Origin: Chiloscyllium plagiosum
Taxonomy: Eukaryota
Assembly: GCF_004010195.1 (NCBI RefSeq)
Contig: NC_057755.1
Coordinates: 5,087,643 to 5,151,642 of the forward strand
Direction of reading: 5' to 3'
DNA length: 64,000 nt
The first letter of the stretch is position 1. Each line of letters starts with the position of its first letter. This document shows positions 9,240 through 49,851 of the stretch, piece after piece. The notes under the pieces are model-generated. The model saw only the letters and a program-made list of their open reading frames with translations. It was not told the DNA's origin and made no database searches. Both the position numbers and the translations under genes were made by a program.

Positions 9240-11600
9240 ATGAACCTAACAATTCGTCAAGTGGAGAAAGTGTTCGACACCATCCTTGTTTTCACTGACA
9301 TCTCTAGTATTGCATTGTGCTATTTGGACTTGTTTCAAATATGTAGATCCGCTCTCTGTTTTTATCTTTTAAAGAATACCATTTCCAGCTCACTTACTCC
9401 TTAGCCTTCTCCAAACACCGGAGCAGTGACGGAAATTCACTGAGCAGCATTCTCAGTACAATTCTCCTCTGACAGAGACTCCTGACTTCTCTGCTGCTGC
9501 AGCATTTTCTGATCTCCGTGTTCTGTCATCTGTTTCAGTTTTAAACGCGTCGAAGGTGTGAGTAGAGATCAGGCCAGTTACTTGTGAATAAGGGTCACTG
9601 GTACCGAAATATAAACTCTGTGTTATCTTCCGCAAATGCTGCTAATCCTGCTGAGGAATTTCTGCTTTTGTTTTACAGATAAGGCCTTTTTTGCCCTCAT
9701 TCTGAAGATTACGGGGTGATCTGAGTGATAACCTACAAGATATCAACAGGAAAAGACAGGAAAAGGTGAACTGTTCCAATTGGCTGGTGTTTCCAAAATG
9801 TGGGACCACAGTCTGAGAATCAGCGCCAAAGATTTCAGGAGAGATTTTAGGAATTCGATGGGTGGGAGAGATTTGGCACACTCTTCCACAAACGGCGATG
9901 GATAATGAATCTGTTTTTCAGTTTTAATCTGAGATTGATTTTCTTTTTGATAGAATGAAATGGATGTGCGCCCTGTTTTGATTTGTAAAGTTTCATCTAA
10001 CTACGTTGCCTTCTGGAAATTCTCGCCTCTCTGGTCAGGGAATTCAAATCTGGAGAGGTTACCCTCCTGATTCCTGCACGTTGAGAACTTTATCATGTAG
10101 ATTTACAATGTAAATATCACAGCTGTCCTTACACGTCGTCATTTAGGGCGCCCTGCATGTTCTGGTATGCCACAACTATCTTACATAGGTTCTGATGCCT
10201 TCATTCATCAGAGCTCAGGTTTGGCTCTGATCAAGTTTTTGTCCAATGCTAAGAACACGCGATGACGTGATGCAAGGAGAAAGTGAGAGTTTGGCTTATG
10301 GACGTTGCACTCGCCAGTCCAGTGACTGAGTTTGGAGCGAAGTTTCTAATAGGGTTTTGTGCCTGCCAGAATGGGAACTTGAAAACTGAAAAAAAATGTT
10401 CACCATCATTCAAATAGTTCCCTTGCTGCCAAATAAAATCACAGGCTAACTTCTGCTTTCTTATCCTGGGGAATGAGCTCAGTTCCTGCCCATACTCCAT
10501 GATCTCTGGAATGACTGGGCTGGAGGAAAATCTGATGTGGTTTTGAAAGTCTTGAAATTCAAACTCACTGAACTGCAACCACTTCCAGGTACACAGTTGG
10601 CCGGTGTTTGTTGATAAAATCTTATTTTTAATTTCTGAAAAAGAAGGGAGTAATTTCTGATCAGTAATTCACTGCATCTTTTCTCACTTGTCTTCAACGG
10701 TTAATTTGCTGGCGATTGTTATCCTTTCCCACGGAAAGTGGTGTGTTACCCCTTGCACGACACACTACCTGGTAGTTATGGTAGCTGCCGATTTGATGGT
10801 CATTATGACTGATATTATACTGATGAATGTTTGATTTTATTATTATCCACGATGTTTCTCAGACATCACTCCTGCGTTTAGTGTCAACATGGTTCTGTTA
10901 TATGCAGCCACTGACTGCTCTGTCTGGTTCACCATCAGTTTCTCCGTTTACCAATTTGGGACCGTTTGTTGTGAGAAGGTGAGAACAAAATATTGCATTG
11001 AGCAAACTGCGAATGTGATTCTCGCAAAAACCTGCATCCTGTTCTGTGTGAAATAAATCCCCTTCTATTTTCAATATGAGCCTATGTGGATAATAAATAA
11101 CGTGCCATTTTACTGTGAACCAAAGGCAAGTTACTTCAGTGAGACTGAGTATGGAGTATTAGATGAGCATTATAAGGTTTTAATCCATTTACTGCTATTC
11201 TCTTTATTCTGTTGGTCAATGCTCTGACAGTCAGACACATTTTAATAACCAGGCGAATCCAGAAGACACTGAAGAGTGAGAGTAAAGCAGAGAATCGCAT
11301 AGACCCAGAGATGGAGAGCAGAAGGAAGTCTGTGATTTTGCTTGCCACCATATCTGGGAGCTTCATCCTCCTGTGGTTAATCTATGATTTAGATTTCTTA
11401 TATTACATCATTCGAAAAAAATCCATCTTGCCGATTTCCCGCATTTTATGAATCACTTCAGCAGTTTTTGTTTCTTGCTGCAAAGCTTAAGTTGTTACAA
11501 AAACACATTTATTTCTGCTTCAACATTGTATTGGTATAGAAAGTAGATCAGTAACGTAGTAAAATACCTGTTTACACAAATTCCGTGTGTTATGAATAAA
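9240..11600 (+). pseudogene. GPR139-like GPCR pseudogene, copy A (exon 1 9240-9306, exon 2 from 10701)
   Basis: Exon 1 MNLTIRQVEKVFDTILVFTDIS. Acceptor AG is mutated to GG (tcttcaacGG|ttaatttg). In-frame TGA at 10832-10834, another stop near 11054, DRF replaced by YQF, and indels. Colinear with copy B through upstream region, intron and exon 2. Confidence 0.88.
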
Positions 11601-11604
11601 AAAA

Positions 11605-12045
11605 CTACTCACATCCACATGTGCGTGGTCACTCTCTCACACACAGATACGTTCACACACACATGCACATGATCAAACAGTCTCACACGTGCATGCAATC
11701 ACACATACCGGCACGTCATCACACACACGGTCACTCACACGCACACGGTAACACAGTCATACACATGGCCATTCATGCACAGTCACACATGTATGTCACA
11801 CACACACGTGCGGTCACTTACGCACAGCCATTCTCACAGACTTACACGAGCATTCAAATATAGTCACACACAGTTGAGGTCACACAGTCACATACATGGT
11901 CACTCACACGTGCGTTCTCTCCCACACACATTCTCTCGCTGTCACACACACTCACACATGCGTTCATTCATACATGCGGTCACTCACACGCATATGGTTA
12001 CTCACACATGTGCATTCTCACATCAACACACTGTCGCAGTCACAC
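11605..12045. repeat. CA-rich degenerate microsatellite between GPCR copies A and B
   Basis: Imperfect (CA)n with recurrent GGTCACTCACAC units. Confidence 0.85.
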
Positions 12046-12447
12046 TCCAGAGTAACAGAAGGACAGCTCTGAGACATATTTTGACGTTTGGAATATAATT
12101 TGTCGTTGCAACATTGATTGAAATAATTCATAATCTCGAGATGGAACTCATAATATCTGAGTGGACAGCGTTATTGCTGGCAGATTCCAGATTCTGCTTT
12201 AGTTATTTCGTGACGATGTTCTAGCCAGCATCACGTGTTCATAATTGGGATTAAACTCATTATTGTAATTAGTTTGTTGATTAACTGATGTGTGAAAAAC
12301 AGCAACAAAGCTGAGCAATGCAGTCACCTCGATCTCCCCAACGTGCTTCCACCCAATATAAGGCAATGTCTCTTGGACTGCATCAGCTCAGGATTTCAAA
12401 CAATGAGCTTGTCAGCTGCCTGAAGGGACAAATCACCTCGCAGAGAA

Positions 12448-12514
12448 ATGAATCTAACGATTGAACTTTTGGAAATAGTGTTTTACACCACCCTTGCTTT
12501 TATCGGGATCCCAG
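12448..12514 (+). CDS. GPR139/GPR142-like class A GPCR, copy B, coding exon 1 (MNLTIELLEIVFYTTLAFIGIP, phase-1 intron follows)
   Basis: ATG at 12448, 67-nt exon ending CCAG|GTATGG donor. Encodes an N-glycosylation sequon (NLT) and the first half of TM1, and joins in frame to the acceptor at 14057/14058. A homologous exon precedes copy A. Confidence 0.85.
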
Positions 12515-13070
12515 GTATGGCGTTATGATAACTGAACTTATCTTAATCTGCTGCTGTCATGTCACAAGCTCACTGGCTGGTCACCATTATTCAGACACTG
12601 GATAATTCACCAGCAATTCACTGAGCAGCATTTTCGGTAAAATTCTCCACTGATAGAGACTCCCAAATTCATTTCCGCTGCAGCATCTTCTGATTTCAGT
12701 GTTTTGTAATCTGTTCTGGTTTCATGCGGTTTGAAGGTATGAGGAGAGATCATGCAAATTACTTCTGTAAAAGGGTTTCTGGAAATGTTACAATAAACTC
12801 TACTTTCTCTCCACTGATGTTCCTGACATGCTGAGTAATTTCTGTTTATGTTATTCAGATGAGGACTGTTTATACTTGGTTAGGAATTCTAGAATGAGGA
12901 AGCATTAGTCTGATAATTAGGGCCAGAGTGTTCAGGAGGGATGTTCGTCAGCACTTTGACACACAACGTTCAGGAAATGTTTGGAAATCTCTTCCAGAAA
13001 CCGCAATGGGATTTTTAATCAAAGACAGATTGTTTTTGTTATGCAAAGGAGTTGAAGAATATGCCACATG

Positions 13071-13245
13071 AAAAACGGAGGTTGCTGGAAAAGCTCAGCA
13101 AGTCTGGTAACATCTGAGAAGAGAAATCAAAGTTAACGTTTTTGGTCTGGGGATTCTTCCTCAGAATGAAACTGAAACGTTAATTTTGATTACTCTTCAA
13201 AGATTCTGGAGACCTGCTGAGCTTTTCGAGCAACTTCTGTTTTTT
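13071..13245. mobile_element. Short palindromic (inverted-arm) interspersed repeat in the intron of copy B
   Basis: Left arm aaaaacggaggttgctggaaaagctcagcaagtct...aaagttaacgttt is the reverse complement of right arm aaacgttaatttt...agacctgctgagcttttcgagcaacttctgttttt. Absent from the homologous intron of copy A. Confidence 0.7.
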
Positions 13246-14057
13246 GCTTCTGGTTTTCGTAGTGAATATGCAGTCTGCTTCGACTGGGAAAGGTTCATCT
13301 GATTACCCTCCCTTCTGGAAACTCTCTTCTCCTCACCCTGTCTGGTCAGGAGAGTTAAATCTTGACAGAATGTCCTCCTGATCGCTGTTCCTCGAAACAT
13401 TTTTCATGTGAAGATGTGTGAAATTCCAATCTAAACATCACAGTCTGACACTCTTACGTTGTTACTAAAGGAGCTCTGTGTGCTCTGATATGCTGTACTT
13501 GCATAAGACACTTGGAGCAGTCTTATCTAAATCCTATGGAGGTTCTGATCGTTCGTTTCCTGCTCCTGTTGTGGCTATGATCAGGATTTGGTCCAATGCT
13601 ACGAGCCGGGGATGACCTGATCCAAGGGGAAAGGGACAGGGTGGTTTATTGACAAACCAATCGCCAGCGCTGTGATTGATTTGGCAACGGGGCTTTTTAA
13701 TTGGGTTCTGTTCTTGCCAAAATCGGAGCTGAGAACTTTAAAAATCGATTACAGGTATTCACACAGATATTTCACCAGTGAACATTGTCAAAAACGTGCT
13801 TCTGCTTTCTTTGGAGGGGCCGTGAGTTCAGGTGGTGTCTCAATGTCTTAAAATTGCACGCTCAGTCCAGAGATTGTGAAATTTGGTTAAAGACTGAACT
13901 CATGGCCCCTCACTCAAAAAAAAAATGACTCAATCCCTCCCAATTCCACTCAAACGATGTACTGATTTTTGTGGTAAAATCTTGTTGCTGCTGTCTGGAA
14001 AAGGCGGGGGGTTCTGATCAGTAATTTACCACGTCATTTGCTATTTGCCTTCTACAG

Positions 14058-14971
14058 TTAATTTGCTGGCAATTGTTATCTTTTCCCGGGGAAAGTGCGG
14101 TGTTTCCCCTTGCACGACACGGTACCTGGTGGTTATGGCAGCTGCCGATCTGATGGTCATCGTCACTGATATTCTGCTGACTAGTTTTCGCTTTTATTAT
14201 TACCCTCAGTCTTTCCTGTCCATCACTCCTGTGTGTAGTGTCATTGGAGCCCTGATACGTGCAGCAAGGGACTGTTCTGTCTGGTTCACGGTCACTTTCT
14301 CCTTTGACCGATTTGTGAACATTTGTTGTCAGAAGCTGAGAACAAAATATTGCACTAAGAAAATGGCGACTGTAGTCCTAGCAACAACCTGCATCCTGCT
14401 CTGTCTGAAAAACATCCCCTTCTACTTTGAATATGAACCTATGATGACAATCAACAATGTGCCATTCTACTGTGATACAAAGTCAAGCTACTTCACTGAG
14501 ACTTGGTGGGTCGCGTTAGATTGGCTTGATACGGTTTTAACCCCTTTACTGCCATTTGCTTTGATTCTTTTGTTCAATGCTTTGACCGTCAGACACATTT
14601 TAGTGACCAGTCGAGTCCGGAAGAAGCTGAAGGGTGAGAGTAAAGGAGGGAATCACAGAGACTCAGAGATGGAGAGCAGAAGGAAGTCTGTAATTTTGCT
14701 CTTTTCCATTTCAGGAAGCTTCATCCTCCTGTGGTTAATCGTTGTCATAGATTTCTTATATTATGCCATTCAAAAAATCCATCCTGATGATTATGCACCT
14801 TTTCTGTACCACTTCAGTATTGTTGGTTTTATGCTGCAGAACCTAAGTTGTTGCACAAACACATTCATTTATGCAGCAACATTGTCTAGATTCAGAGCGA
14901 AGATAGGTAATGCAGTGAAGTACCTGTTTGAAAAAATGCTTGCGCTTTCAATAAATAAAAGCCATTTGTGA
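14058..14971 (+). CDS. GPR139/GPR142-like class A GPCR, copy B, coding exon 2 (intact; spliced product 326 aa)
   Basis: Acceptor TTGCCTTCTACAG|TTAATTTG. Open frame with class A hallmarks: (P)VNLLAIV TM1 Asn, MAAADL TM2 Asp, TM3 Cys and FDRF, ECL2 Cys, LLPF TM5, SGSFILLW TM6, CTNTFIY TM7, helix 8 SRFR. 67+914=981 nt = 327 codons including stop. The subfamily call is by motif resemblance. Confidence 0.9.
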
Positions 14972-15505: not shown

Positions 15506-15654
15506 AAAAATGTGTTGCTGAAGGTTCCTGAAGAAGGGCTTATGCCCGAAACGTCGATTCTCCTTCTCCTTGGATGCTGCCTGACCTGCTTCGCTTTTCC
15601 AGCAACACATTTTTAAGCTCTGATCTCCAACATCTGCAGTTCTCACTTTCTCCT
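15506..15654 (+). mobile_element. 149-bp Penelope-type terminal-repeat insertion with minimal hammerhead motif and 14-bp TSD
   Basis: Flanked by AAAGTGGGGAGTAT at 15492-15505 and 15655-15668. The first 15 bp are an inverted copy of 15600-15614. Confidence 0.82.
15524..15560 (+). ncRNA. Minimal type I hammerhead ribozyme motif
   Basis: CTGAAGA-A-GGGC TTAT GCCC-GAAAC-GTC: catalytic core boxes, 4-bp stem II, palindromic ACGT stem III, predicted cleavage after C15555. Stem I is weak in this copy. Confidence 0.65.
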
Positions 15655-16294: not shown

Positions 16295-16338
16295 ATACAC
16301 ACACACACACACTCACAAATACACACACACACACACAG

Positions 16339-17449: not shown

Positions 17450-17717
17450 GACCTGTTCTATCTGTTCTAGCCTCCCCACCAATCTATCACAATTACCATG
17501 CACCAGAATCCACCTGTCATCTTGCCACCTACTTTACCCCTAGCCACGCCTCCCTTATTTATCTCTCATTCCACTTTCCACTCTACATTCCTGATGAAGG
17601 GGTAATAGTCGAAACGTCGACTTTCCTGCTCCTTGGACGCTGCGTGACCTGCAGTCCATTTCCAGCGCCACCCTTTTCCACTCTGACTCGCCAGCATCTG
17701 GGTCCTCACTTTCTCCT
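17450..17717 (+). mobile_element. Penelope-type terminal repeat abutting GPCR copy C
   Basis: cattcCTGATGAaggggtaatagtcGAAACGTCga, and terminus gtcctcactttctcct. Confidence 0.75.
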
Positions 17718-18350
17718 CCTTTGATCGATTTGTGACCATTTGTCAGAATCTGAGAACAAATTATTACACTGACAAAACTACAACTGTGGTTCTACCAAAA
17801 ACCTGCACCCGACTCTTCCTGATAAGTATTCTATTTTAATTTGAATTTTCGGTGATCATGAGCAATGTGCCATTCCACTGTCAAGAAAAATCAAGCTGAT
17901 TTATTACGATTTGGTCGGTGACATGAGATTGGCCTGATCCAGTTTTAACCGCTTTACCGCCATTTGCTTTAAATCTGTTGGCCAATGCTCTGACAGTCAG
18001 ACACGTTCGGACGAGGCTGAAGGGTGAAAATAAAGGAGATAATCGCAGAGACCCAGACATGGAGTGCAGAAGGAAGTCAGTGATTATGCTCTTCACTATA
18101 ATTGAGAGGTTCATCCTCCTCTGGTTAAAAGTTGTGACACATTTCTTATTTAATGTCATTTAAGTAATAAATCCTGAAAATTGCCCGCCATTTTTGCACC
18201 AATGCACTGTTATTGGTTTAATGTTGCAGAGGCTATGTTTTTGCACAAATACAATTATTTATGCTGTAACACTGTCGAGGTTCAGAGCGAAGTGCGGTAA
18301 TGCAGTAAAATTCCTGGTTACACAAATTCCTTGTGTTATGAATATATCAA
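17718..18350 (+). pseudogene. GPR139-like GPCR pseudogene, copy C (5'-truncated, starts at the TM3 DRF motif)
   Basis: TTTGATCGATTT (FDRF), then fragments NALTVRH, DPDMECRRKSVI and CTNTIIYAVTLSRFRAK, with stops and frameshifts. The 5' half is replaced by a Penelope-like repeat. Confidence 0.85.
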
Positions 18351-19189
18351 CTTTCTTTGTGAAAGCAAAACCAGTTCATGGAATGACACTTTTCATTCAC
18401 CTGTAGGATGTTGGCATTACTGGCTGTGTCCGCGTTTACCTCCTCGTCTCTCGTTGCCCCTTGACAATGTGGCTATAAGTTGTCTTGCTGAACCGCTGCA
18501 GTCCATGTACAGTACGTAGATCCACAGTTGTATTCGGGAGGCAATTCCAAAATCTTGTTCCAGTGACCATGCAGGAACGGGTATATATTCCCCAAGTCGG
18601 GATGATGAGGTGCTCAGAGGGGAAGTGGTCGTGGATTTTGAAGGTGCTGTCTGAGGATCTTTGGTGAATTTCTGCAGTGCACCTTGTAGAAGTATATACT
18701 GCTGCGACTGAGTCTTAGATTTGAAGATTGTGATTTCTTTGTGGACATGCAGTCAATATAGTGGAACTGTTTTGCCCTGAATGGTGTCGAACTTCTTGAT
18801 TGCTATTGGAGTGGCACCTGTTCAAGTGTGGAGCATTTCATCGCATTCCTGGCAGAGCATCATTATGCCAATGAAAGGAGGGAATTGAGCAGGAAACCTG
18901 CGGATTACCCATCGTAGCATAATCCAAAGTAATTGACCAAGGAAAAGAATTATTCAGTAATTGCTATCAGCTTGGAGCTCTCTGTACATCTTCATCAAAA
19001 CGAAATCCTTAGCAGGGCTCTGATGACATTACCTCGAACAGTTAATCAGAAATTATTTGACTATGATATATATGATCTCACTCCTACGTTAACATTCAAT
19101 AGACGCCGTGTGAATGTCACAAATAGCTAACTATGAGGAGTTCCAGTGTGAGAAGTTGTGACAGGCGATTACATCACGTTATCAGAAAT

Positions 19190-19300
19190 CACACATCCAA
19201 ACATTTACTTATTCAGTAACATTGTCTAGGTGCAGAGTAAATTTCTGTAACGCAATAAATAATCTCATGATATGAATTCCTTACGTTTGATAACAAATAG
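19190..19300 (+). pseudogene. Short remnant of a GPR139-like TM7/helix-8 segment
   Basis: acatttacttattcagtaacattgtctaggtgcagagtaaat aligns by eye to copy B acattcatttatgcagcaacattgtctagattcagagcgaag. Confidence 0.6.
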
Positions 19301-20275
19301 TTGCTGTCCCCAATTTTAAGCATGAGGCTTACAGCTCCCAATGGGCTGCTACTCCAATGGACTCACAAACAGAAACTTTCAACAGGATAAACACACGCAC
19401 ACTTCCATTTCTCTTTATTAATCCTTTTCCATATTCTCTACAAGCTCATAATCATTCTGTATCTCTCTCGCATTTAATCAAACCCTTTGTTCTCTTTTGC
19501 TAAAACATAAACTGCTCCCAATCCTCAAACAGGCTGATCTAATGCAAAGAAGTGTTACAATCTTAAAGTCCTGATCGACGTCCCACAGGTATAAATTCCA
19601 GTTGCGATAATGTCATGCCTCAATTTCCATTCATTCACATTCAACACCACAAGCCAATTCACGGAGAAAGATGCTTGACGTAATCCACAATGTTTCTAAA
19701 ATATGTATGCAATAATTGCCATCATTGGTATTCCTGGTTGGTGACATTAACTTGTTTAGATTTGCAAACTAGTTATTGCTTTTACTGAAACAGAATACCT
19801 ATGAAGGTTTGGCAGCATGTGTGGAAAGAAATCAAACTTTTCCACTGAGTTCTGTCCACAGATGCTGCCAGACTTGCTGAGGTTTTCCAGCCATTTCTGT
19901 GTTACTTCCTCATTTCCTGAATCCCCAGTTCTTTCGGTTTATATTTGTTTGTTGACTTTGTTGTGCGCTTGATAGTCAGTCACATAGTGATCATCATATG
20001 TTCCAGTATCATATTCAGTGATATTCACCATTTTCTCAACAAACAATAAGGATGTTGTTTCACTTAAGTGAAAGATGATTGCTGGTGGTTTAACCTAATG
20101 GTCGCTATGTCTCAAGTGAGAGGAGTGATTGAGCAGGATAGACCTTCATGGTAACCTCAGCCGATGTAAGGAATTAACCTAGATATTTGCTGTCCTTCTG
20201 CATCACACATTAGTCTTTGAGTCAACAGAGTCTACCTGATTACTTTGCATAGCCAAGTATGCGAAATATGTAAAT

Positions 20276-21840: not shown

Positions 21841-24825
21841 AATCTGGGGATCCTGCAAACTTCCACTATTACCCTGAATGAAGGACATCAGCCTTAGTAA
21901 TCTCGTTATAACTTTTGCCCTGTAGAATTCTGAGACTTATGCATGGTATCTCAGCCACAGATCTCATTTCCAAGGCTAGAACGTACTGAAAAGGAAAATA
22001 AGTACGTCAGAGGCATTGAACTGGCATTGGCAGGTTCTTGTGTATCTGGGCGTGTTCTACACACAAGAGGAGTTTGAAGTTTGGAACTTTCTTCCACAAG
22101 ATCTGAATTTTAATCTGTGTTAGACGTATATTTGTTAAGCAAAGATTTGGACTAAAAGAAGAGAGATGGAACTAGGCCATAGATTAAATATGACGTGATT
22201 GAATCGTAGAACACATTGGAGGAGCTGAATGGCGAACTCCTGTTCATACAGCCCTATAGTCCGTACTCCAGGTTAAAATGTCTTTTGGCACGTCGGTGAA
22301 TCCCACATGAACACCCATCATCTATGAGCTCCTCCACCTGATGTCTCTGCTCGAAGAATTTCTCCATCATTTTGCCCAGAGCTGCAGTATAGTGCCTCCC
22401 ACTAAATTACAGAATAAGTTATCAGTCTACTTGCTGAAGTTTAGATGAATGACGGGGCACTCTCATTGGACCCTGTAAAATTCTGATGCCCCCAGCGACC
22501 AACAAATTGAGATCCAAGAGTCACAATTTAAGAAAATGTGGAGATGATGAGAAATCTCTCCATCTGTTGTTTGAGTTTCTGTGTTCATTTAGACTCCAAC
22601 ATCCCCCTACCCAAGGCAAAAAATACTCATTTTTTAACATCCACTGTTTCTTTAAATCCCTGCATCCTTGGAAGGTTTTTCATTTTGGTCAAAACGCACC
22701 AAACCGAAGCTCTAACTCGGCCTCTCTGCCCAAAGATGTTGTCTACTTCCTCACTATTGTTCAATGATGTGGACAGCAATAATAAAGAGATTGACTTCTG
22801 ATTCTTTATGCAGGGACTGGGGTGAAATTCTTAACCTCAAGCTGGCCACGCCCTGTGGGTGAAAAGTGTTTGTAACTAATGCTTTCAACGTTAAAAGTTT
22901 CCCTTCAGGAAGGCAGGTTGGTTGACAGTTTGCTGAGGATAATCCCATACAAGAATAAGTTTGAGCTGTTCCAAATGCAGCTAATTGAACAACAACCCAG
23001 GAAGAGAAGAATGTACCTCATGGTCATCAGAATTAGACCAAGATTCTTCACCAATCCATCTCTTCCTGTCACACAAGATGTTTTCCAAAACCCTGAAATT
23101 GCCTCCGAATCTATCTGTGTGTCCCATCAACTGCCATTTGCTGTAATTCTTGAGTCTCCAGGAGTTCAATGTGAAAAATCGCTTCCGGGTATAACCTAAT
23201 GTCATTTATGGGTGTTGGTTTAGTTTTGTTGATTGTAGTTTGTGAAGCGGTGTGATGCTAATAGCGTGTGTTCAATTAACATCACTGGCTGCTGTTACTA
23301 TAAAGGACTCTCCTTGTCACTCTCTTCACACACCTGAGGTATCGCAGCCCTGATTATAAATCATCAGACATCTCTCTCAAATGCGGCAGCACGTCCAAAT
23401 GGTCCGGTAAGACTATGGTGACTTGAATGTTATTAACGTAATAATTGTTTCAATTAGGGAAGCATATACATAAAAACTTAGTGTGGGACCTCTTCCATGC
23501 TGACATTCTGCGACTACCTCCCTCTCCCGAATCAGTTCAAAATTGAAACAAAACATATTGAGAAAATTTGAATCATTGGCTGAGATTCCTTAATATCCAA
23601 TGACATTAAGTCTATAGTTATGTGTGCTAAATTCAAATCGTACTCGCCAGGCTCAGCAACTCCAATTATATCGTGACTCGTTTTCTTTATTTTATCTCTG
23701 GCTCTTTCAGTCCATGTCATGGCGATTATAAATCTGTCTCGGGGAAAGCGTGGATTTAGCAAGTGCATCATGTGTTATCTCGTGATGATGGCAGTGGCGG
23801 ATCTACTGCTCATTATCATCGAGGTCATATTGAGGCAAATTAATGCTTTATTATTTCTTTCTTGGACATCAATACCGTATGTAGCATTCTCAGTGTCATC
23901 AGTTGTGCAGCACAGATTGTACCATCAGGTTCACTGTTACTTTCTGTTTTGATAGGTTTGTGGCGATCTGCTGCCCGCAGATGAAAATCCAATATTGCTC
24001 AGGGAAACCCGCAGCTTTACTACTCGCAATGACATTATTTCTACTGTTGTTGAAAAGTATTCCTTTCCAATTTGTATATGAAGCTCATGAAATTACTAGC
24101 AATGTACCATGTTTCAGCTCTGTAAAGCCTAGTTATTGTACTAAGACCTGGTGGATGGCGTTTTCTGGATTAGATAAAATTTTAAATCTTTTGGCACCAT
24201 TGGTGTTAATGATATTGTTGAACGCACTGATACTCAGCCAGATTTTATTGACAAGCCGAGTTCTCAGAGGACTGAGGATTGTCAGCAAAGGCAAGAATCA
24301 GAGTGACCCAGAAATGCAGAGCAGTAGGAAATCCTTGATTTTCCACTTCACTGTTTCTGGAAGCTTCATATTTTTGTGGCTTGTATATGTCCTGTATAGC
24401 TTTAATGTTGTATCTTACTTTGACGACACTTCATTTTACATTTTTGTGCAAGTTGGGTATATGCTACAGAACATCAATCTTTGCACAAATCTTTTTATTT
24501 ACTTTGCAACACTGTCCAGGTTCCGAGAGCAGTTTCAGAGTGCTGTGAACTATCCAATCACAACAATTATTCTATCAATTAATAAGGAAAAAAATATATG
24601 ATCACAGTCTGTTGTGTTTTCCTTACCTTTGAGCTAGTAGGCCCAATATCAATCCGACCTCCTCCACAGGTATCTAGTAGCATCTTTCAAGAAAATAGCT
24701 AAACAAGAGAAATCTAAATGGAGACATGCTGTGAGTCTGAGTGATTCTACTGCATGAATATTGTATTTGCCATAAAAAAATCAATGGCTCCCCGTCAGCA
24801 TTGATTTCCAGATGATCAAAAAGAG

Positions 24826-26762: not shown

Positions 26763-27520
26763 ATCATAGAATCATGCCTCGTGGCAACACATTTCAGTCC
26801 AACTTGTCCCTGCCAACCAGTTTCCCCAAACTAATTTAGTCCCATTTGCCTGCATATGACCCATACCCCTCTAAAGTGGCATTATTCCTTCTCCTGTGCA
26901 AATATCTTCTAAATCTTACTGCACCTGCATCCAACACTTTCTGTTGCAGTTCACTACACATACGAAGCATCCTCTGTCTGAGTACTTTGCCCCTCCGGTC
27001 CCTTCGAAAGATTTCTCGTTTCACCTTCAAATTAGGATCTCTAATTCTACACTCCCCGACCTTAATAAAAATAGCTTGGCTATTCATCTTATCTGTACCC
27101 CTCATGATTTTACACAATACTCCAAAAGTAGCCTCACCACAATCCTGTACAAATGCAACATGCCATTCCAACTCCGACATATATTGGTCAGAGCTATGAA
27201 AGCAAGGAAACCAAATACCTTTTTTCCCAACTTGTTTACCCGAGACAAACCTTTCGATTAACTGTGCACCTAAACTCTGAGGTGTCCTTGTTTGACATTA
27301 AGTCTTAGGAAAACTCCATTAAGTATATAAATCATTTCCTTGTTCGTTTTACCAAAATGCAACACTTCACATTTATCTGAGCTAAATTCAAACTCCTACT
27401 CGCCGGCCTATTGGCCCAATTGTTCAAGGTCCCCTTTTAATCATAGAAAACCGTCTTCACTGTCAACGACACTACCGACTTTGGTGCGACTCTCAAACGT
27501 ACTGAACACGCTTCAAATGA
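26763..27520 (-). mobile_element. CR1 LINE 3' fragment (its distal part is duplicated in tandem)
   Basis: LEGYGSYAGKWD C-terminus and CATAGAAT-type tail. Confidence 0.75.
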
Positions 27521-28074
27521 ATTGCTCCTCAAGATAAGTGACTGCCTGGAACTCTACGCCCAGAAATTGCTGGAAGTTAGATCACTGAAAGTATTTGATC
27601 CAAAAGTACCTCACCACAATCCTGTACAAATGCAACATGCCATTCCAACTCCGACATATATTGGTCAGAGCTATGAAAACAAGGAAACCAAATACCTTTT
27701 TTCCCAACTTGTTTACCTAAGACAAACCTTTCGATTAACTGTGCACCTAAACTCTGAAGTGTCCTTGTTTGATATTAAGTCTTAGGAAAACTCCATTAAG
27801 TATATAAATCATTTCCTTGTTCGTTTTACCAAAATGCAACACTTCACATTTATCTCAGCTAAATTCAAACTCCTATTCGCCGGCCTATTGGCCCAATTGT
27901 TCAAGTCCCCTTGTAATCATAGAAAACCTTCTTCACTGTCAACGACACCACCGATTTCGGTGCGACTCTCAAACGTACTGAACACGCTTCAAATGAATTG
28001 CTCCTCAAGATAAGTGACTGCCTGGAGCTCTACGCCCAGAAATTTCTGAAAGTTAGATCACTGAAAGTATTTGA
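27121..28074. repeat. Direct tandem duplication, 2 x ~477 bp (27121-27598 / 27599-28074)
   Basis: Both units run tccaaaagta(g)cctcaccacaatcc ... gttagatcactgaaagtatttga, with scattered substitutions. Confidence 0.93.
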
Positions 28075-29555: not shown

Positions 29556-29875
29556 AGGCACTTTTCTGTAGAAGGAAACTCAGAGTGTATAAAAGTGCTG
29601 AAATGGCAGTATAAATGGAAAACAAAGATGTCAGGAATGTCTTCAGCCAAAGGATGGTGAACCTGTGGAACTCATTAACATAGAAAGGCCATGGAGACCG
29701 TCACTGAGTGTATTTAAGTCAGTGATAACTTCGAAGGTGACAGAGAGGAGGCATAAAAATGGGGTAAAGAACTTATCAGGGAGGAGAAAGTGAGGACTGC
29801 AGATGCTGGAGATCAGAGCTGAAAATGCGTTGCTAGAAAAGTGCAGCAGGTCAGGCAGCATCCAAGGAACAGGAG

Positions 29876-29912
29876 AATCGACGTTTCGGGCATAAACCCT
29901 TCTTCAGTAATG
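29876..29912 (-). ncRNA. Minimal type I hammerhead motif in a Penelope-type repeat (29783-29990)
   Basis: Reverse complement reads cattaCTGAAGA-A-GGGT TTAT GCCC-GAAAC-GTCgatt. Confidence 0.6.
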
Positions 29913-31328
29913 AGGAAAGTGCGTCCAGCAGGCTAAGATAAAAGGTCGCGAGGAGGGACTTGGGGGATGGGCGTTGGAAATGCGATAGGAAATGCGATCA
30001 GTAAAGAAACTTATCAGCCATGACCGAATGGCGTAGAGGATTTGTTGGACCAAATGGTTTAACTTTGCTCCTCTACTTTACAGTCTCATAATCTCTGGTC
30101 AAGTGGGAAATAACATTTTATCCACCCTAATGTCAGACAATTACTATCTCCAGCAAAGGAGATTCTAACCATCACCTTTTGGTATTCAGTGACATTACCA
30201 TCACGTAAACCACGATTATCAACATCCTGAAGATTGCCTTTGACCCAAAACTGCGCTAGATTAGCCATATCAGGATTGTTTCCACAACATTATGTCAGAG
30301 GCCAGTAAATCTGCAAAAATAGGCTCACTTCTTCACTCCGCAAAACCTATCCAACATTTATAAGGCACAAGTCAAGAGTGTGATGAAATACTCCACACTT
30401 TCCCGGATGGGTCCAGCTCCAATAATATGGAAGGCACTTGATACCATCAGGATCATGCAAAATTCTGAAGAAGAGTCAAGGCAGACTCTACCGCTTCGCT
30501 TTTGTTTCTCTGCACACAGAACCTGCAAACTCTGTCGGGTTTATCTGACATTTCCTTTGTTTATTTGAGATACCCTGCATCGGCAGTAATTTGTCTTTTT
30601 TTTTCTGGAACATATCAGACCACTCGATTGTCATCATAGTCAGAAAGCTTCAGTCTGACTCTCCACTGTCGCTCAGTAAAATCAGTGGGTACCATCCACA
30701 AGATGAATTGCAGAAGCTGGCCAAGGCTCCTCAGAGTGCTCCCTCTCAACCTCATAGCCACAACTGTCTCGAAGCAGTAGATGTATGGGAATGGCAACAC
30801 TTGCAAGTTCACTTCAAACCATTTGCCTTCCTATCTTGGAAACATGCTGCCATTCCTTCAGTTTTGCTGGATAAATTAAAAGGTATCTAGACAGTTCCTT
30901 GTAGACGAAAACTTTAGCAGAATATGGGCCATAGTCGGGAAGTGGGAGCCAGTTCAGCTTAGGAAACCTGGTCGGCATGAACACGTTGGACGTCAGGATT
31001 ACTTTCTGTGCTGCATGATTCTATGTAGGCGATCTTCCAACAATTGTTCTACACTAGCTCGAGAAGGCAGCTCACCGCCATATTCTCAAGTGTAACTCGG
31101 GAATGGTCAATAAATGCTGACTCAGCCTCCGCCGAATGGGCTAACGTTATTACATAAAGCTGCTTCAGCAGATGTAAGATAACACCGTTGGTGAAATCAT
31201 AAGGAATGTGTAACTTGGAAGTCACCAAAAGCGGGAAAAGTGTGGCCCATTTCATGAAAAAGAGGGAGTAGAGTTCAATACGTTGTACACAAATATAACT
31301 GAATTTGAACACTTACCAATAATTTCAA

Positions 31329-31672
31329 AGTTGTGAGACGATTTGTAGCTCGGGTGCTCGTTGCTGTGGTTCTGTTCGCCGAGCTGGAAGTTTTTGTTGC
31401 AAATATTTCGTCCCCTGTCTAGGTGACATCCGCAGTGCTTGGGAGCTTCCTGTGAAGCGCTTCTGTGGTGTTTCCTCCTGCATTTATAGTGGCCTGTCCC
31501 TGCCGCTTCCGGTTGACACTTGGTGGAAGGATTCGATTCTTTCGGCATTCATGCAGGAACCGGAGTTGTTCGCATGTGGCGCTTAGGCGGTTAATGCAGG
31601 ATTCCCATTTCCTGGCTTGTCGTAGCGTCTCTCGCCCGTAGGTGTTCAAAGTTTGTGAGAAGATTTGTAGCT
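31329..31672 (-). mobile_element. Partial duplicate of the second-family Penelope-like element
   Basis: Copy of 33193-33533, truncated at the duplication junction. Confidence 0.78.
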
Positions 31673-33192
31673 GAGATCAGAGCTGAAAATGCGTTGCTAG
31701 AAAAGCGCAGCAGGTCAGGCAGCATCCAAGGAACAGGAGAATCAACGTTTCGGGCAGAAACTCTTCTTCAGTAATGAGGAAAGTGCGTCCAGCAGGCTAA
31801 GATAAAAGGTTGGGAGGAGGGACTTGGGAGATGGGCGTTGGAAATGCGATAGGAAATGCGATCAGTAAAGAAACTTATCAACCATGACCGAATGGCGTAG
31901 AGGATTTGTTGGACCAAATGGTTTAACTTTGCTCCTTTACTTTACAGTCTCATAATCTCTGGTCAAGTGGGAAATAACATTTTATCCACCCTAATGTCAG
32001 ACAATTACTATCTCCAACAAAGGAGAGTCTAACCATCACCTTTTGGTATTCAGTGACATTACCATCACGTAAACCACCATTATCAACATCCTGAAGATTG
32101 CCTTTGACCCAAAACTGCGCTGGATTAGCCATATCAGGATTGTCTCCACAACATTATGTCAGAGGCTAGTAAATCTGCAAAAACAAACTCACTTCCTGAC
32201 TCCGCAAAACGTATCCAATATTTATACGGCACAAGTCAAGATTTTGATGAAATATTCCACACTTTCTCAGATGTGTTCAGCTCCAATAATATGGAAGGCA
32301 CTTGATACCATCAGGATCATGCAAAATTCTGAAGAAGAGTCAAGGCAGATTCTACCGCTTCGCTTTTGTTTCTCTGCACACAGAACCTGCCAACTCTGTC
32401 GGGTTTATCTGACATTTCCTTTGTTTATTTGAGATACACTGCATCGGCAGTAATTTGTCTTTTTTTTTCTGGAACATATCAGACCACTCGAATGTCATCA
32501 TAGTTAGAAAGCTTCAATCTGACTCTCCACTGTCGCTCAGTAAAATCAGTGGGTACCATCCACAAGATGAATTGCAGAAGCTGGCCAAGGCTCCTCAGAG
32601 TGCTCCCTCTCAACCTCACAGCCACAACTGTCTCAAAGCAGTAGATGTATGGGATTGGCAACACTTGCAAGTTCACTTCAAACCATTTGCCTTCCTATCT
32701 TGGAAACATGCTGCAATTCCTTCAGTTTTGCTGGATAAATTAAAAGGTATCTAGACAGTTCCTTGTAGACGAAAACTTTAGCAGAATATGGGCCATAGTC
32801 GGGCAAGTGGGAGCAGTTCAGATTAGGAAACCTGGTCGGCATGAACACGTTGGACGTCAGGATTACTTTCTGTGCTGCATGATTCTATGTAGGCGATCTT
32901 CCAACAATTGTTCTACACTAGCTCGAGAAGGCAGCTCACCGCCATATTCTCAAGTGTAACTCGGGAATGGTCAATAAATGCTGACTCAGCCTCCGCCGAA
33001 TGGGCTAACGTTATTACATAAAGCTGCTTCAGCAGATGTAAGATAACACCGCTGGTGAAATCATAAGGAATGTGTAACTTGGAAGTCACCAAAAGCGGGA
33101 AAAGTGTGGCCCATTTCATGAAAAAGAGGGAGTAGAGTTCAATACGTTGTACACAAATATAATTGAATTTGAACATTTACCAATAATTTCAA

Positions 33193-34007
33193 AGTTGTGA
33201 GACGATTTGTAGCTCGGGTGCTCGTTGCTGTGGTTCTGTTCGCCGAGCTGGAAGTTTTTGTTGCAAATATTTCGTCCCCTGTCTAGGTGACATCCGCAGT
33301 GCTTGGGAGCTTCCTGTGAAGCGCTTCTGTGGTGTTTCCTCCTGCATTTATAGTGGCCTGTCCCTGCCGCTTCCGGTTGACACTTGGTGGAAGGATTCGA
33401 TTCTTTCGGCATTCATGCAGGAACCGGAGTTGTTCGCATGTGGCGCTTAGGCGGTTAATGCAGGATTCCCATTTCCTGGCTTGTCGTAGCGTCTCTCGCC
33501 CGTAGGTGTTCAAAGTTTGTGAGAAGATTTGTAGCTCGGGTGCTCGTTGCTGTGGTTCTGTTCGCCGAGCTGGAAGTTTTTGTTGCAAACGTTTCGTCCC
33601 CTGTCTAGGTGACATCCTCAGTGCTTGGGAGCCTCCTGTGAAGCGCTTCTGTGGTGTTTCCTCCGGCATTTATAGTGGCCTGTCCCTGCCGCTTCCACTC
33701 ATCCACAAACTCCATTAACAAACACATCGACCTGGACCCAATATACGGCCTCTACAGCGGACAGCTGAAACTGACACTCATCCACAAAGTCCATCAACAA
33801 TCACATCGACCTGGACCCAATATATCGGCCACTACAGGGACAGCTGAAACTGACAACCGGAAGTGTCAGGGACAGGCCACAATAAATGCCGGAGGAAACA
33901 CCACAGAAGCGCTTCATAGGAGGCTCCCAAGCACTGAGGATGTCACCTAGACAGGGGATGAAACGTTTGCAACAAAAACTTCCAGCTCGGCGAACAGAAC
34001 CACAGCA
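33193..34007 (-). mobile_element. Internally deleted Penelope-like element (second family): two direct pLTRs around the ORF 5' end, plus an inverted pLTR
   Basis: Direct repeats at ~33193-33377 and ~33512-33697 flank NTYGRETLRQARKWE...LRFLHECRKNRILPPSV. The inverted copy at 33698-34007 encodes HSSTNSINKHIDLDPIY (GIY-YIG C-terminus). Flanking duplication a(t/c)ttaccaataat(t/g)tcaa. Confidence 0.8.
33585..33624 (-). ncRNA. Minimal type I hammerhead motif (second PLE family)
   Basis: Reverse complement reads gca-CTGAGGA-T-GTCACCT AGAC AGGGGAC-GAAAC-GTT-tgc. Stem I GCA/TGC; stem II has one mismatch. Confidence 0.6.
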
Positions 34008-42385: not shown

Positions 42386-43539
42386 TGTGTGTGTGTGTGA
42401 GAGAGAGAGAGATGAGGTCTACCTGCAATGGTACACACTTTCTCCGAGATGGAAATTTGAATGAATGAATTAATACGTGAGGAATAAAAAGCCCAGTATC
42501 TTTCTCTATTTGTTTCCCTCGCTGTTGTCTTGTGTTGAAAGTGATTCCCCGAAATTTCTGTTTCGCAACGGTGCTCTCTCTCTCTCTCTCTTTCATTGTC
42601 ATACCTACCGCCAGTCTTCATCCTGCCCTCTGTCTGTTTGTCAGGCCGACCATCAGTCAACGTCTATCTCCCTCTCTGATGGTTAGATTGAAAGTACGTC
42701 AGCGCCTCGTTTCTTCTCCAATGTTTAGACTTGTATTTAGTCAGTGACCCACTGAAATATAACCCAGATTGACACTTCTCTGATGGACCATTTGTATGGT
42801 TGTCTTCAATTATATCATTCGAGGACTAGACTACACGAATTCCGAAATAATATTTGAAGAATTTAGAAACATGGTTGAGGGGGTTGAGTTTCTGAACAAA
42901 CTCATGAATTTACACAGCAACTCAGTCCAAGTTCAGGCACCAAATCAAGCATGCGCTGACATCTCCAATGGCACAACTGACACAATGAATGAAAACACTG
43001 CACGTCTGAAAGTGAGCCGACTGTGTCATAGCGTTTCCAGTCTGAGTTTCAAATTTCGACGTGACCCCAAGTGAGGAGCAGTTCAACAACGCTTAAGTTG
43101 TAATGGAGTTGAGATTTTGTTGGAATGAATGTGGGGGCACGACGTGCAGGTCAGGATGATGAACGTGAGGAATATTGGCTCCTGCAACATTCCGATTATC
43201 ACCTTGTCAGATTAGTTCCTTATCAACGTGTCATTAAAGGGCAAAACAAAGTAAATGTAACAGTAGAAATCATGGTCAGTGTACTATTTAGTAATAATGT
43301 AAAAATAAACTGCTGTGACATTGTTCTCTGCCTCTGTAATTTTTTTCTTCCATGTGAAAACCCTTGAGAGTTTTGACACCCACAGACACTTATTTCCGGG
43401 AATCCCAAGTTTGAAATGACAGAGGTCATCATTATATGTCTATTGTTGTAAATCTGGACGCTCAAGAGGGGCCTTTCGATTCCGTGATTGGTCAAATAAG
43501 CAGAAGCAGCTTAGTCTGTTTAAACAAGTTTTAGCAATT

Positions 43540-45519: not shown

Positions 45520-46440
45520 GATGTACACATTGGAAAGAGACCCCACAGTTCAACTTGTCCATCCAACAAGATATCCAAAATTCACCTTGTCATATTTACC
45601 AGCATTTGGCATTCTGAACCGTTACTGTTCATCCGGATGAAACGTCGATTCACTTGCTCCTCGGATGTTGTGATTTTCCAGCACCACACTGTCAACTCCG
45701 ATTTCTAGAATATGAAATCCTCACTTTCTCCGAGTTGATTTCAACCTTCCTGCTCACCTGTCCGTCCTGATGTCCTTTAAATGTTGTATTTCGTACCAAC
45801 CTCCAAGACTTTATTTGGCTGCTCATTCCACACCCACAGCACCCTCTCCATGCAAAACTTGCCATTAAGGTCCTTTTCATATCCTTCCCCTCTCACTTTA
45901 AGCCGATGTTCTCGAATTTTGGACTTCCGTACGATGGGAAAAAATACTTTGGCAATTGTCATACACATGCCCCTCATGATTTCATAAACATCTAACCTCT
46001 GACACTTCAGGGAAAATAGCCGCAGACCCTTTTGCCTCTCCCAGTAGCTTAACACTCCAATCCTGTTAACATGCTTGCAAATCGTGTCTGAACCCTTTCA
46101 AGTTTCACAACATTCTACCTGCTGCAGCGAGGTCAGAACTGAACATAGTATTCCAAAACTGGTCTAACCAATGTTCGGCTTCTCAGTAACACGTCTTCCT
46201 AAATCCTCTATTCAATGCACTGACGAATAAAGACACGTGCACTAAATGACTTCTTTATTAATCTGTCTACCTGCGATTCCACTTTCAAGAAATTGTGAAT
46301 CTGTACCCCCATCGTCTCTGTTCTGCAACATTCCTCAGAACCATTGCCTTGATTTGTCCTACCAAAATGCAACATCTTACTTTCAGCGAAGTTAAACTCG
46401 ATCTGGCACTCCTCGGATCATCCATCCAAGAGCAATCATT
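45520..46440 (-). mobile_element. CR1 LINE 3' fragment with a nested Penelope-type repeat (~45630-45730)
   Basis: LRLFSL, VYEIMRG and REHRLKVRG motifs in the minus-strand ORFs. Confidence 0.72.
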
Positions 46441-47729
46441 CAGAAATAAGTGTTCAGTGGCAACCATCCATCCTGTGTGGCTTCATCCGTCCGGGTATTG
46501 AGTAAAAAGGTTAGCAAATCATGTTGCAGCTGAATAAAACTTTATTTAAGTCATATTTAGAGCATTGCCTGCAATTCTAGACACCACATGAGAGATTGGA
46601 CCGAGTGTGAAAGATGGTTATTGGAGTGTTTTCTGAAGTAGCATGTTTCCATCCTGAGGAAAGATTGGACAAATGTGTTCATTTGCCCGAGAGTATCGGC
46701 GGCTGAAGAGACACCTGACGGAAATAGAAAAAAAGTGTGTGGAATGGATCAGGTGAATATTCAGCGCCGTTCTTCCACGCTCGAGTGAGTAGTTTCCTAA
46801 CCTATTGAGCTTTTTTTTCCTGAACACATGGTGGCAAGCACGCTGAGTTTTTCCAGCAATTTCTGTCTTTCTGTATTTCCAGCACCTGCAGTTATTTATT
46901 TCATTGTATGTAAGTACAACTTAGGGTGGAGTAACCTGGTCTGCAGCAACTATCTTGCGGAAGAATCTGAGGAGTGATCAGAATTTGAAATTTATGCATG
47001 GAAGACATCAGAGGACAATATTATGGCTGGTGATTATTTCAGGAGAAGGACGAAGTCAAAAACCTGACAGGAGTCGTAATCAGGCTGCCAAATGTACAAA
47101 TAGGAGCAACAACAAAGGAGTAAATATTGAGTGATTCTGCTTACTTTTGGTTTTCAGCAAGACAATTATCATTTGGAAGATTGAATCAGATTTAAGAATG
47201 CTTTATCTTCGTCAGTATTGGTTGAAACTTGAACTTAAAACAAAAAGAGCAGGAGAACTTTATTTTGTGTTTTGGCTTACACTGGCATTCTACACGGCCA
47301 TGAATGTTCCTTTATGTCAATGTCAATACCATATCATGATGCATAAAATTTTATTAGCAGTAGGAAAGGTGGTCATCAGCAGGATCTTTTCCTTGCTGCA
47401 CATTCATAAATACAGATTTGCCTGCCTCCTTCAATGTCTAAAAATCCTTTTTTCCGTTGTTGGAGCACCAGCATCTCCACCTTCCCTGTGAAATGCTGGA
47501 TCTTCCCATTGCTTCACATTCGAGCCGTAGAAATTAAGCGTCAGTTAGCATCACTGCTGTGCTTCTTTAAGATCTGGATGCAATTGAATGCAACAGTTTT
47601 TGCAACAGCCAAATCATTACTTTGTTCCAGTCACCGAAAGTGTGAATTGCTCATAACCAAACAGACAGAAAAACTGAAGGATGGAATACAGCAGTCAAGT
47701 AGACGCAACCGACATTCGAATAAGAGTTC

Positions 47730-48002
47730 AGTTTGTGTACGTGTGTGCTCTGTGTGTGTGCACGTGCGCACGTGTTTACTTGTTTGAGCGTGTGTACGTA
47801 TGTCAGCATGTGTCTGAGAGAGAATGCGTGTGTGTGGGTGAGTGTGTGCTTGTGAGGGATCGTGTGTGTACATGTGTATGCGTGACCATGTGTGCATGTG
47901 TGCGAGAGTGCGTGTGTGAGTGTGTTTGTGAATGTGCGTGTGTGCATGGTGTATGTCTTTGTGTGCGTCTCTGTGTGTGAGTACGTGTTTGTATGTGTGC
48001 AC
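47730..48002. repeat. TG-rich degenerate microsatellite about 1 kb upstream of copy E exon 2
   Basis: Imperfect (TG)n. Confidence 0.88.
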
Positions 48003-48979
48003 ATTTATGTAAGCGAGAAAGCAGGGTTGATTGCTGGTTTTATTGAAAATGGCAATATTCGCTTTCCCACAGCGGCAGAGGGTTTTTTGTGATTACTTGG
48101 GTGGCATTCCAGTCTGGTCTCTGAGTCTGGATTAACAAGCAATGCAAATGCTCGCTTTTGAAGTGAAGGAAACTCGTAAATGGAAGAGGATTTTGGTTTT
48201 TTGAGAGGTTCAAGAGCTCGGGGTTTCTGTCATGATTTAAGAGGCAATACATGTAAGTCAGAGTTGAGAATAACTATTGTCCTCCTTAAATTCATGTGAC
48301 TACTTAACTCAGTTTGTGAAAACTTACGGAGAGCACATGGATTCACAAATCTTTTAAGGCGGAGTTAGAGCCATTCTGCATTTTCACTGTGCAGCAGGCG
48401 CGCTGTGTTGAACGGAATGTGCGGTAGTTAGATTCGCCATGACCAATATTTCAGCCTCAATTGTCCACATGGCTTATTGCTTCCCCAACTTTATGATCTC
48501 ATGGAGAGATTGATACATAATAGATGATGAAGCGACATGAATAAATCTTGCGAGAAACATACAAACACATCCTGATCTCTGAAATAAAGCTTTATTCTGT
48601 GAGCAGTTATTCAAGAAGTTCAGTTTGAAGTGGGAACCAATTTTATCAGGATCAAGAACAAGTAGTTATGTACCTTGAAAGATTCAAATCATAACTCATT
48701 TACAAGGCTGTGTATTCCCCAATCCCAATCAGACTTTGATTTAGGGAAAGGTCGTGCAATTATTGAATTAACAGAACCCGACTATCTGATTGCCTGGTGA
48801 GTCTGAAATTACTTTAGATTTAGATCTGAATTAGAATTTCCATATTCAACAATAACAGAAACCATTTGATCACCTGCAAATTTCCATATTCTGTGCTCAT
48901 CATACCATACTGACGGCGTCAAATCGAGAAGCTGTTTGCTGAGTAAATTCTAGCATTTTTCCATTTCTTTCTCACACAA

Positions 48980-49851
48980 TTAATTTGCTGGCCATTGCGA
49001 TTCTCTCCCGCGGACATTGTGGTGTTTCAAAGTACACCACACGCTACCTCGTGGCTATGACATGGGCAGATCACCTGATCATCATATTTGAAGTCATATT
49101 GAGAGAGATTATTTATTATTATGAAACCCCAGTGTTTTTCTTGGTCATCACCCCTGCATGTAGTGCTCATGATGCACTGTGTGATGCAAGCATGGACTGT
49201 TCTGTCTGGTTCACTGTCACATTCTCTTTTGATCAATTTGTAGCTGTTTGTTGCCATAAATTGAGAACACGATTTTGCACAGACAAAACTGCAGCTGTGG
49301 TGCTTTCAACAACCTGCATTCTGCTTTGCTTGAAAAGCGTCCCTGTCTATTTTATTCATGAATCTGGGTATATAGTTGACAATGTACCATGGTTTTGTTA
49401 TGTGAAACCGAGTTATTATACCGATCCTGGTTGGGTGGGTTATGAATGCTTTGCTAAAGCTTTAACGCCACTGCTCCCATTCGCTCTAATTCTGTTGATC
49501 AACACTTTGACTGTAAGACAAATTTTAGCATCCAGCCGAGTCCGTAAGGAACTGAAAGCCCGCACTAATGGAGAGAAACACCGCGACCCAGAGATGGAAA
49601 GCAGGAGGAAGTCTGTCATTTTACTTTTTACCGTATCTGGCAGCTTTATACTTCTGTTGTTGACATTTATCTTAAAATTCTTTCGTGATATCATTGGCGG
49701 AACCGATTCCACTGATTCTGAAACCATATCTGGTTATTTTGGCCTCATGCTGCGGAATTTACGTTGCTGCACAAATGCATTTATTTATGTAGCGACTCAG
49801 TCCAAATTCAGACAGAAAATCAAGAACATTTTGAAATCACTAGTGGCATAG
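48980..49851 (+). pseudogene. GPR139-like GPCR copy E: open exon-2 reading frame but probable young pseudogene
   Basis: Uninterrupted ~290-codon frame homologous to copy B. Acceptor reads CAA|TTAATTTG instead of CAG, DRF is DQF, TM6 Trp is lost, and no exon 1 was recognised upstream. GPCR identity is secure; coding status is uncertain. Confidence 0.7.

Follow-up and report, generated by a model that had tools for sequence, protein, structure and literature searches.

The 64,000-nt stretch of the Chiloscyllium plagiosum genome analysed here (contig NC_057755.1, positions 5,087,643 to 5,151,642; hereafter the window) contains seven loci of a single receptor gene, all on the plus strand: one intact copy, four broken paralogs and two remnants. 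They belong to a two-exon family of class A G-protein-coupled receptors (GPCRs) of sharks and rays, which was likely multiplied from a single orphan receptor of the GPR139 clan. The predicted ligand pockets vary from copy to copy on a nearly fixed intracellular face. The family may therefore be a sensor repertoire that covers many different water-soluble molecules and is used, most probably, by olfactory cells or other external chemosensory cells, a reading which we hold tentatively and, judging from sequence, at somewhat under an even chance.

The copies were located by six-frame translation, tblastn and a nucleotide profile across the window. Translation and tblastn revealed five long GPCR-coding segments between 10701 and 49851, named A, B, C, D and F. 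A nucleotide profile of these long copies added exactly two pieces, at 42766-42993 (E=1.4e-15, remnant E) and 19201-19287 (E=7.9e-9), and found nothing better than E=5 in the reversed window that served as control. The array of five same-strand paralogs and one remnant described in an initial annotation was borne out and gained a further remnant. The features, numbered from the first letter of the window, are as follows (TM, transmembrane helix):

9240..9306, plus strand: copy A exon 1, 67 nt, from ATG to a phase-1 GT donor
10701..11604, plus strand: copy A exon 2, a pseudogene without the acceptor AG; stops, frameshifts, D3.49Y/R3.50Q, C3.25F
12448..12514, plus strand: copy B exon 1, 67 nt of coding sequence (22 codons and 1 base)
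12515..14057, plus strand: copy B intron, GT...AG, phase 1, within TM1; splicing inferred from homology
14058..14971, plus strand: copy B exon 2, which with exon 1 encodes an intact class A GPCR of 326 amino acids
17586..17717, no strand assigned: short interspersed repeat at the 5' break of copy C, about 10 copies in the window (self-blastn)
17695..18359, plus strand: copy C, pseudogene with the 3' two-thirds of exon 2; stops at 17837, 17897, 17924 and 18161
19201..19287, plus strand: second remnant, TM7/helix 8
19671..19736, plus strand: copy D exon 1 of 66 nt, with one base deleted
23711..24601, plus strand: copy D exon 2 with a canonical acceptor; indels near 23834-23912 shift the frame
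42766..42993, plus strand: remnant E, end of TM6 to helix 8, several stops
48980..49851, plus strand: copy F exon 2, open frame; acceptor CAA, R3.50Q, W6.48L, early stop

Exon 1 was detected for three of the five long copies (A, B and D; 67, 67 and 66 nt), each time followed by GT and a phase-1 intron within TM1, the architecture already proposed for copies with a surviving 5' end. Neither the protein nor the DNA profile found exon 1 of C or of F. About 850 bp of sequence, upstream and intronic together, are common to A and B at 71% identity, and downstream sequence is common to B and C. These three are the youngest copies, with synonymous divergence (dS) of 0.40-0.48; D and F are older, at a dS of about 1-1.5 from B. 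The array would thus have grown by tandem duplication of a unit of promoter, exon 1, intron and exon 2, followed by frequent loss.

Only copy B is clearly intact, in agreement with the initial annotation. Spliced in silico, it yields a protein of 326 amino acids with seven predicted helices, whose sole Pfam match at E<=0.001 was 7tm_1 (PF00001, E=1.2e-21); no OR, TAAR, V1R/ORA or V2R profile matched at this threshold. Besides 7tm_1 and the seven helices, its class A character is visible in N1.50, D2.50, C3.25, DR3.50, P5.50, W6.48 and N7.49/Y7.53, with residue numbering taken from B's own motifs. P6.50 and P7.50 are absent from the family. The N-terminal domain of B is almost absent, and its structure model (mean predicted local distance difference test, pLDDT, 68) has a predicted hairpin in extracellular loop 2 (ECL2). 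Near-identical contigs of DNA run X1, possibly the source sample, span both splice sites of B, where no change is listed, and two parts of its exon 2.

The six other loci in the window are broken. Copy A exon 2 contains stops at 10832, 11054 and 11544 and frameshifts near 11206, 11414 and 11574, and has no acceptor AG. The 5' end of copy C is cut at the short interspersed repeat, with four internal stops behind it, and copy D carries frameshifts in both exons. In copy F exon 2 is open, yet the acceptor reads CAA, and Q and L replace R3.50 and W6.48, which are present in 82 and 81 of 82 family sequences, respectively; copy F is probably a young pseudogene. An upstream rescue acceptor for F would insert 12 residues within TM1 and was rejected by eye as unlikely.

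The remainder of the window consists of debris of long and short interspersed nuclear elements (LINEs and SINEs), with no Rfam match in the window. A scan of 14 other long frames gave one scoring match, a LINE endonuclease fragment below the cut-off. A degenerate 41-bp tandem array (6935-8149, about 30 copies, 57% match) ends about 1.1 kb upstream of the start codon of copy A, and another degenerate array, rich in CA (11635-12045), directly precedes the flank of copy B; no such tandem array was seen upstream of D and of F. Between D and E, local tandem duplications at 29809-33536 (1,865 bp at 97.5%) and 27121-28074 (478 bp at 96%) could be recent products of unequal crossing-over or assembly artefacts.

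The family extends far beyond the window. With B as query, 1,921 protein clusters at 90% identity were matched at E<=0.001, a figure that mixes cross-species orthologs with faulty gene models and is not a per-genome count. The best 120 of these 1,921 clusters were all named shark proteins from 11 species, and the automatic name of nearly all of them is 'probable G-protein coupled receptor 139'. They include at least 62 members from Heterodontus francisci, a lower bound for this one species, on 18 sequences with 22 on a single one, and at least 24 from Pristiophorus japonicus. At the level of 50% representatives, 111 matches at E<=1e-30 reached down to 35% full-length identity, followed by a gap to 23-29%. 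Among 20 more distant family representatives, 17 were named sharks or rays, including skates, a stingray and an electric ray, and three were without species; no chimaera member was named among the matches listed. At least 15 species of sharks and rays have intact-looking members, and copy B nests among carpet-shark proteins with support of 100/100 in a tree of 60 sequences. The summed contig depth of run X1 was 570-39,500 over exon 2 versus 12-34 over most bins of unique intron sequence, and at single places other letters were present in 21-36 contigs, which suggests many paralogs but gives no copy number. The postulated large birth-and-death GPCR family of cartilaginous fish is upheld by the cluster count, its shark and ray membership and the decay in the window, and in H. 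francisci, with at least 62 members, the number of copies is well above the handful that would have spoken against it.

Two side observations concern how the family appears in sequence data. Around and upstream of B exon 1 (12060-12640) the summed DNA contig depth was 200-950, against 12-34 in most unique intron bins, with none in run X7; this suggests an upstream block common to many paralogs and not a common transposon. Several database models are chimeric, with LINE-derived or unrelated segments fused to them, and others bear misleading names (chemokine, capa or vasopressin receptor, sodium channel), so that the family is scattered across database labels.

Copy B alone matched human GPR139 weakly (E=5.4e-5, 26 bits), behind AT2R. 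A profile of 71 family sequences placed human GPR139 (PDB 7VUG) first among solved structures (E=1.2e-13), and GPR139 also came first, narrowly and with about 20% identity, in a fold search that discriminates poorly (model pLDDT 68, equal top E-values). The family is a member of the GPR139/GPR142 clan, together with MIP, FMRFamide and srw-type receptors. Its sequences place it in a separate lineage and not among the orthologs of GPR139 or GPR142. With GPR139 first for the profile and weakly matched by B, the clan is right and the gene name misleading. The class A fold, the short N-terminus and the lack of P7.50 are common to GPR139, GPR142 and the shark family. The latter differs from GPR139 in the absence of F3.33, H5.42, P6.50, R6.51 and N7.39 and the presence of C3.25, and from both receptors, which exist as one copy, in its many copies.

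The nearest non-shark proteins were orphans of coelacanth, salamander, teleosts and amphioxus; B scored 101-106 bits against the fish and amphibian orphans. A search with the salamander protein returned one cluster each in 20 amphibian species and one from sturgeon, ahead of any shark, and no teleost or amniote member; a bichir member was found too. Teleosts, amphibians, reptiles and sharks all carry a conserved ortholog of the coelacanth-type gene, and the shark ortholog sits outside the expanded family. In maximum-likelihood trees of 60 and 31 sequences, human GPR139 and GPR142 not among them, the shark family grouped with the amphibian/sturgeon/bichir gene (support 87/93 and 93/84, respectively, below the starred threshold). 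The FDR(F/Y) motif, a motif of intracellular loop 1 (ICL1) and the D-P-E motif of intracellular loop 3 (ICL3) also occur in 17-20 of 24 single-copy relatives and in 0 of 88 sequences of the coelacanth type. The sequences therefore point to the single-copy amphibian/sturgeon/bichir orphan as the likely sister or ortholog lineage. The modest support values speak against this placement, as do a topology that places the family apart from every single-copy type, which is not rejected by the approximately unbiased test (p-AU 0.26), and the slightly higher raw score of B to the coelacanth protein (106 bits) than to the salamander protein (101 bits). A grouping of the family with the coelacanth type was weakly rejected (p=0.039).

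The single-copy orphan (e.g. XP_069092602.1), auto-named 'probable GPR139', differs from the shark family in its one cluster per species in the 20 amphibians and in a GPR139-like pocket that is 95% identical among the single-copy relatives. The motif [DNE]Rx[DN][YF] in ECL3 is present in 24 of 24 single-copy orphans and in 0 of 142 shark family sequences. Among the other single-copy orphans of the clan, this motif was seen in 83 of 88 sequences of one subtype and R6.51 in 88 of 88. In the papers found, there was no characterisation of the single-copy orphan. GPR210A/B and a third subtype, neighbouring orphans from fish and coelacanth, have been named beside GPR139/142 in a survey whose accessible text has no match for 'shark' or 'cartilaginous' and describes no expansion (Rinne et al. 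2019, PMC6504862). These subtypes probably correspond to the genes of coelacanth, teleosts and reptiles in the present analysis. Other single-copy orphans of the GPR139 clan are annotated in some databases as isoforms of transmembrane protein 183A, labels hinting at a fixed neighbour that is useful for synteny.

Mutagenesis and modelling assigned the binding of Trp/Phe in GPR139 to F3.33, H5x43 (5.42), W6.48, R6.51 and N7x38 (7.39), according to the accessible part of the study (PMC5430874). In the shark family only W6.48 is retained (81 of 82), and the counts for F3.33, H5.42, R6.51 and N7.39 are 5, 2, 0 and 0 of 82, respectively. The single-copy relatives kept F3.33 (24 of 24), W6.48 (22 of 24), a basic K6.51 (24 of 24) and N7.39 (24 of 24). 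Since the single-copy gene keeps residues that the family lost, the ancestral receptor likely had a fixed pocket resembling that of GPR139, which then escaped this constraint and became diverse in the cartilaginous fishes. The initial annotation was correct in calling the receptors GPR139/142-like as far as the clan is concerned, but the residue counts do not support Trp/Phe sensors of the GPR139/142 type. With F3.33, W6.48, K6.51 and N7.39, the single-copy orphan of amphibians, sturgeon and bichir is itself a candidate receptor for aromatic amino acids or peptides.

Variation among family members was assessed in an alignment of B with 81 of its best 120 matches (39 were dropped for lengths outside 298-345 amino acids). 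The pocket was defined as 28 class A textbook positions, fixed before the test. Mean entropy was 1.58 bits in the pocket versus 0.95 bits at 49 other positions of the extracellular half (p=0.002) and 0.37 bits at 82 positions of the intracellular half. Pocket sites made up 14 of the 20 most variable positions of the extracellular half (p=0.0004), with the highest variability at 3.29, 3.32, 7.35, 2.65, 2.61 and 7.39. These values support the variable extracellular face that had been noted, and the three motifs quoted with it, SRGKCG and two more, are near-invariant. The divergence noted for ECL2, TM5 and ECL3 was found for the two loops (1.36 and 1.78 bits, respectively) but not for TM5, which is among the most conserved segments of the 82 close members (0.61 bits). 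Their variable transmembrane sites lie in TM2, TM3, TM6 and TM7; pocket sites in TM5 vary across 61 distant representatives. All 62 horn-shark (H. francisci) paralogs have different pockets. Their identity was 0.54 in the pocket, 0.75 at neighbouring non-pocket positions and 0.89 in the intracellular half, compared with 0.95, 0.75 and 0.77 among the 24 single-copy amphibian, sturgeon and bichir relatives used as control. This contrast between paralogs and single-copy relatives indicates that, in the manner of a receptor repertoire, the family let its pocket diversify but kept the side that faces the G protein frozen.

Pairwise ratios of nonsynonymous to synonymous substitution rates (dN/dS) were calculated between window copies. 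Between B and F, dN/dS was 0.15 in the intracellular part, which is under strong purifying selection, and 0.58 in the pocket. The pocket changes faster, but no value above 1 was obtained with intact copy B (B-A 0.90, B-C 0.50, B-D 0.34), so that these pairwise comparisons give no sign of positive selection.

In the reading which we favour, a sensor repertoire, receptors with copy-specific pockets would signal through one common G-protein pathway via the conserved DRF, ICL2 and ICL3. Polar ligands, e.g. amino-acid derivatives or short peptides, would be expected from the abundance of D, E, R, Q, N and Y in the pocket, from the retained TM3-ECL2 cysteine pair (C3.25 in 81 of 82 sequences) and the predicted ECL2 hairpin, and from the near absence of an N-terminal domain. 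The OR, TAAR, FPR and MRGPR repertoires and the srw receptors of nematodes are characterized by tandem clusters, pseudogene turnover, a hypervariable pocket and a conserved intracellular face. The shark family matches these general properties as a large multigene family in clusters with pseudogene turnover and a hypervariable pocket on a conserved scaffold, and Srw-bearing clusters are among the look-alikes listed in the Atlas. Unlike these repertoires, it has an independent origin in the GPR139 clan, a coding intron in TM1 and 7tm_1 as only profile match.

The expressing cells would be olfactory or other outward-facing chemosensory cells; family size, turnover and the apparently unlabelled olfactory neurons of catshark lead us to lean towards external chemosensation. 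According to the accessible text of PMC10116579, catshark olfactory neurons form an almost continuous monolayer, and a probe for the putative V2R co-receptor labelled 5.9 cells per mm. The counts given there for seven receptor probes sum to 12.6 cells per mm; the sum is ours, and from the gap we infer room for further receptors. It is possible, though less likely than not, that sharks and rays smell mainly via an unrecognised fifth family of olfactory receptors. This family would number hundreds of genes and derive independently from an orphan of the GPR139 clan that survives as one copy in other vertebrates or was lost there, with one or few members expressed in each of the many microvillous neurons that known V2R probes leave unlabelled. 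Several points weigh against an external chemosensory role. The same source describes all catshark olfactory neurons as Go/TRPC2 microvillous cells, assigned by its authors to V2Rs, and its probes cover about 16 of 34 v2r genes, so that the labelling gap may reflect the sensitivity of in situ hybridization. A top-50 list for catshark 'brain and olfactory epithelium' contained no GPCR, nor did it contain any V2R. In every GPCR family, pockets diverge more between paralogs than between orthologs, and the pattern therefore indicates divergence of ligands and not sensory use. Finally, relaxed constraint is possible because pocket dN/dS stayed below 1 wherever B was involved.

Four runs aligned to B yielded no spliced read across its intron. 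Of the 276 partial reads from run X5, nearly all fell on repeats and about six, mostly paralog-like, on exon bins; run X6 gave no reads on B; and run X7, RNA by our guess, gave one paralog-like match of 72 bases among the pieces shown. A motif scan upstream of A, B and D found nothing shared beyond chance.

The sequence signature would fit equally well an immune or nociceptive repertoire, similar to the formyl-peptide receptors or MRGPRs of mammals, with diverse sensors for peptides and small molecules on leukocytes, mast-like cells or somatosensory neurons. A niche for it appears open, as MAS1/MRGPR relatives are missing in cartilaginous fishes according to the accessible text of the whale shark paper (PMC8455134). 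The ECL2 hairpin of the model resembles that of peptide receptors, at a mean pLDDT of 68, and several of the closest relatives are located on small sequences of 8-14 Mb. On the other hand, the almost missing N-terminal domain argues against binding of the chemokine type, and the upstream regions of A, B and D have no common NF-kB, ISRE (interferon-stimulated response element) or C/EBP-like site, a weak test. We regard such a role as a serious candidate with a minority chance.

That the family is mostly a product of drift, a duplication-prone cassette in repeat-rich DNA whose copies mainly decay and whose pockets vary under relaxed constraint, seems improbable to us. The six broken loci of seven and the pocket dN/dS below 1 with B would be expected then, as would the finding that none of about 21 million single-cell records from one sample of unstated tissue was a clean RNA read of B. 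Drift does not readily account for intracellular halves that are 89% identical beside pockets of 54% among 62 paralogs of one species, for whole-gene dN/dS of 0.25-0.29 for B-D and B-F, or for intact-looking members in at least 15 species. Least probable are additional receptors of the GPR139/GPR142 type for L-Trp, L-Phe or aromatic neuropeptides in brain or gut. The top rank of human GPR139 with the family profile and, narrowly, in the fold search would be in line with them, as would the residues kept by the single-copy sister gene and the aromatic ligands thought to be ancestral to the clan (accessible text of PMC8557429). Yet the family lost the binding residues except W6.48, B alone scores AT2R above GPR139, and 62 different pockets within one species would be superfluous for a receptor of an endogenous ligand.

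A literature search, with subscription journals outside its scope, found no description of the family. GPR139 is unmentioned in the accessible text of shark genome papers (PMC10620051, PMC11979771, PMC8455134, PMC7677710 and bioRxiv 10.1101/2025.02.19.638963). As far as accessible, the whale shark paper describes cartilaginous fishes as relatively poor in GPCRs and left gene families of more than 100 copies out of its analysis of size (PMC8455134), and the catshark study describes a very small olfactory repertoire despite large noses (PMC10116579). The family is apparently annotated but undescribed, a known kind of system with an unexpected ancestor in a lineage said to be poor in such genes. 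A family of this repertoire-like shape, with probably dozens to hundreds of genes in each genome, goes under a borrowed name in the annotations, and family-size pipelines discard very large families by design. Its conserved coding blocks permit the design of one pan-family probe, and the single-copy amphibian gene with its GPR139-like pocket is a natural ancestral reference for ligand screens. If the family were indeed a fifth olfactory receptor family, this would overturn the view that the chemoreceptor repertoires of cartilaginous fishes are tiny.

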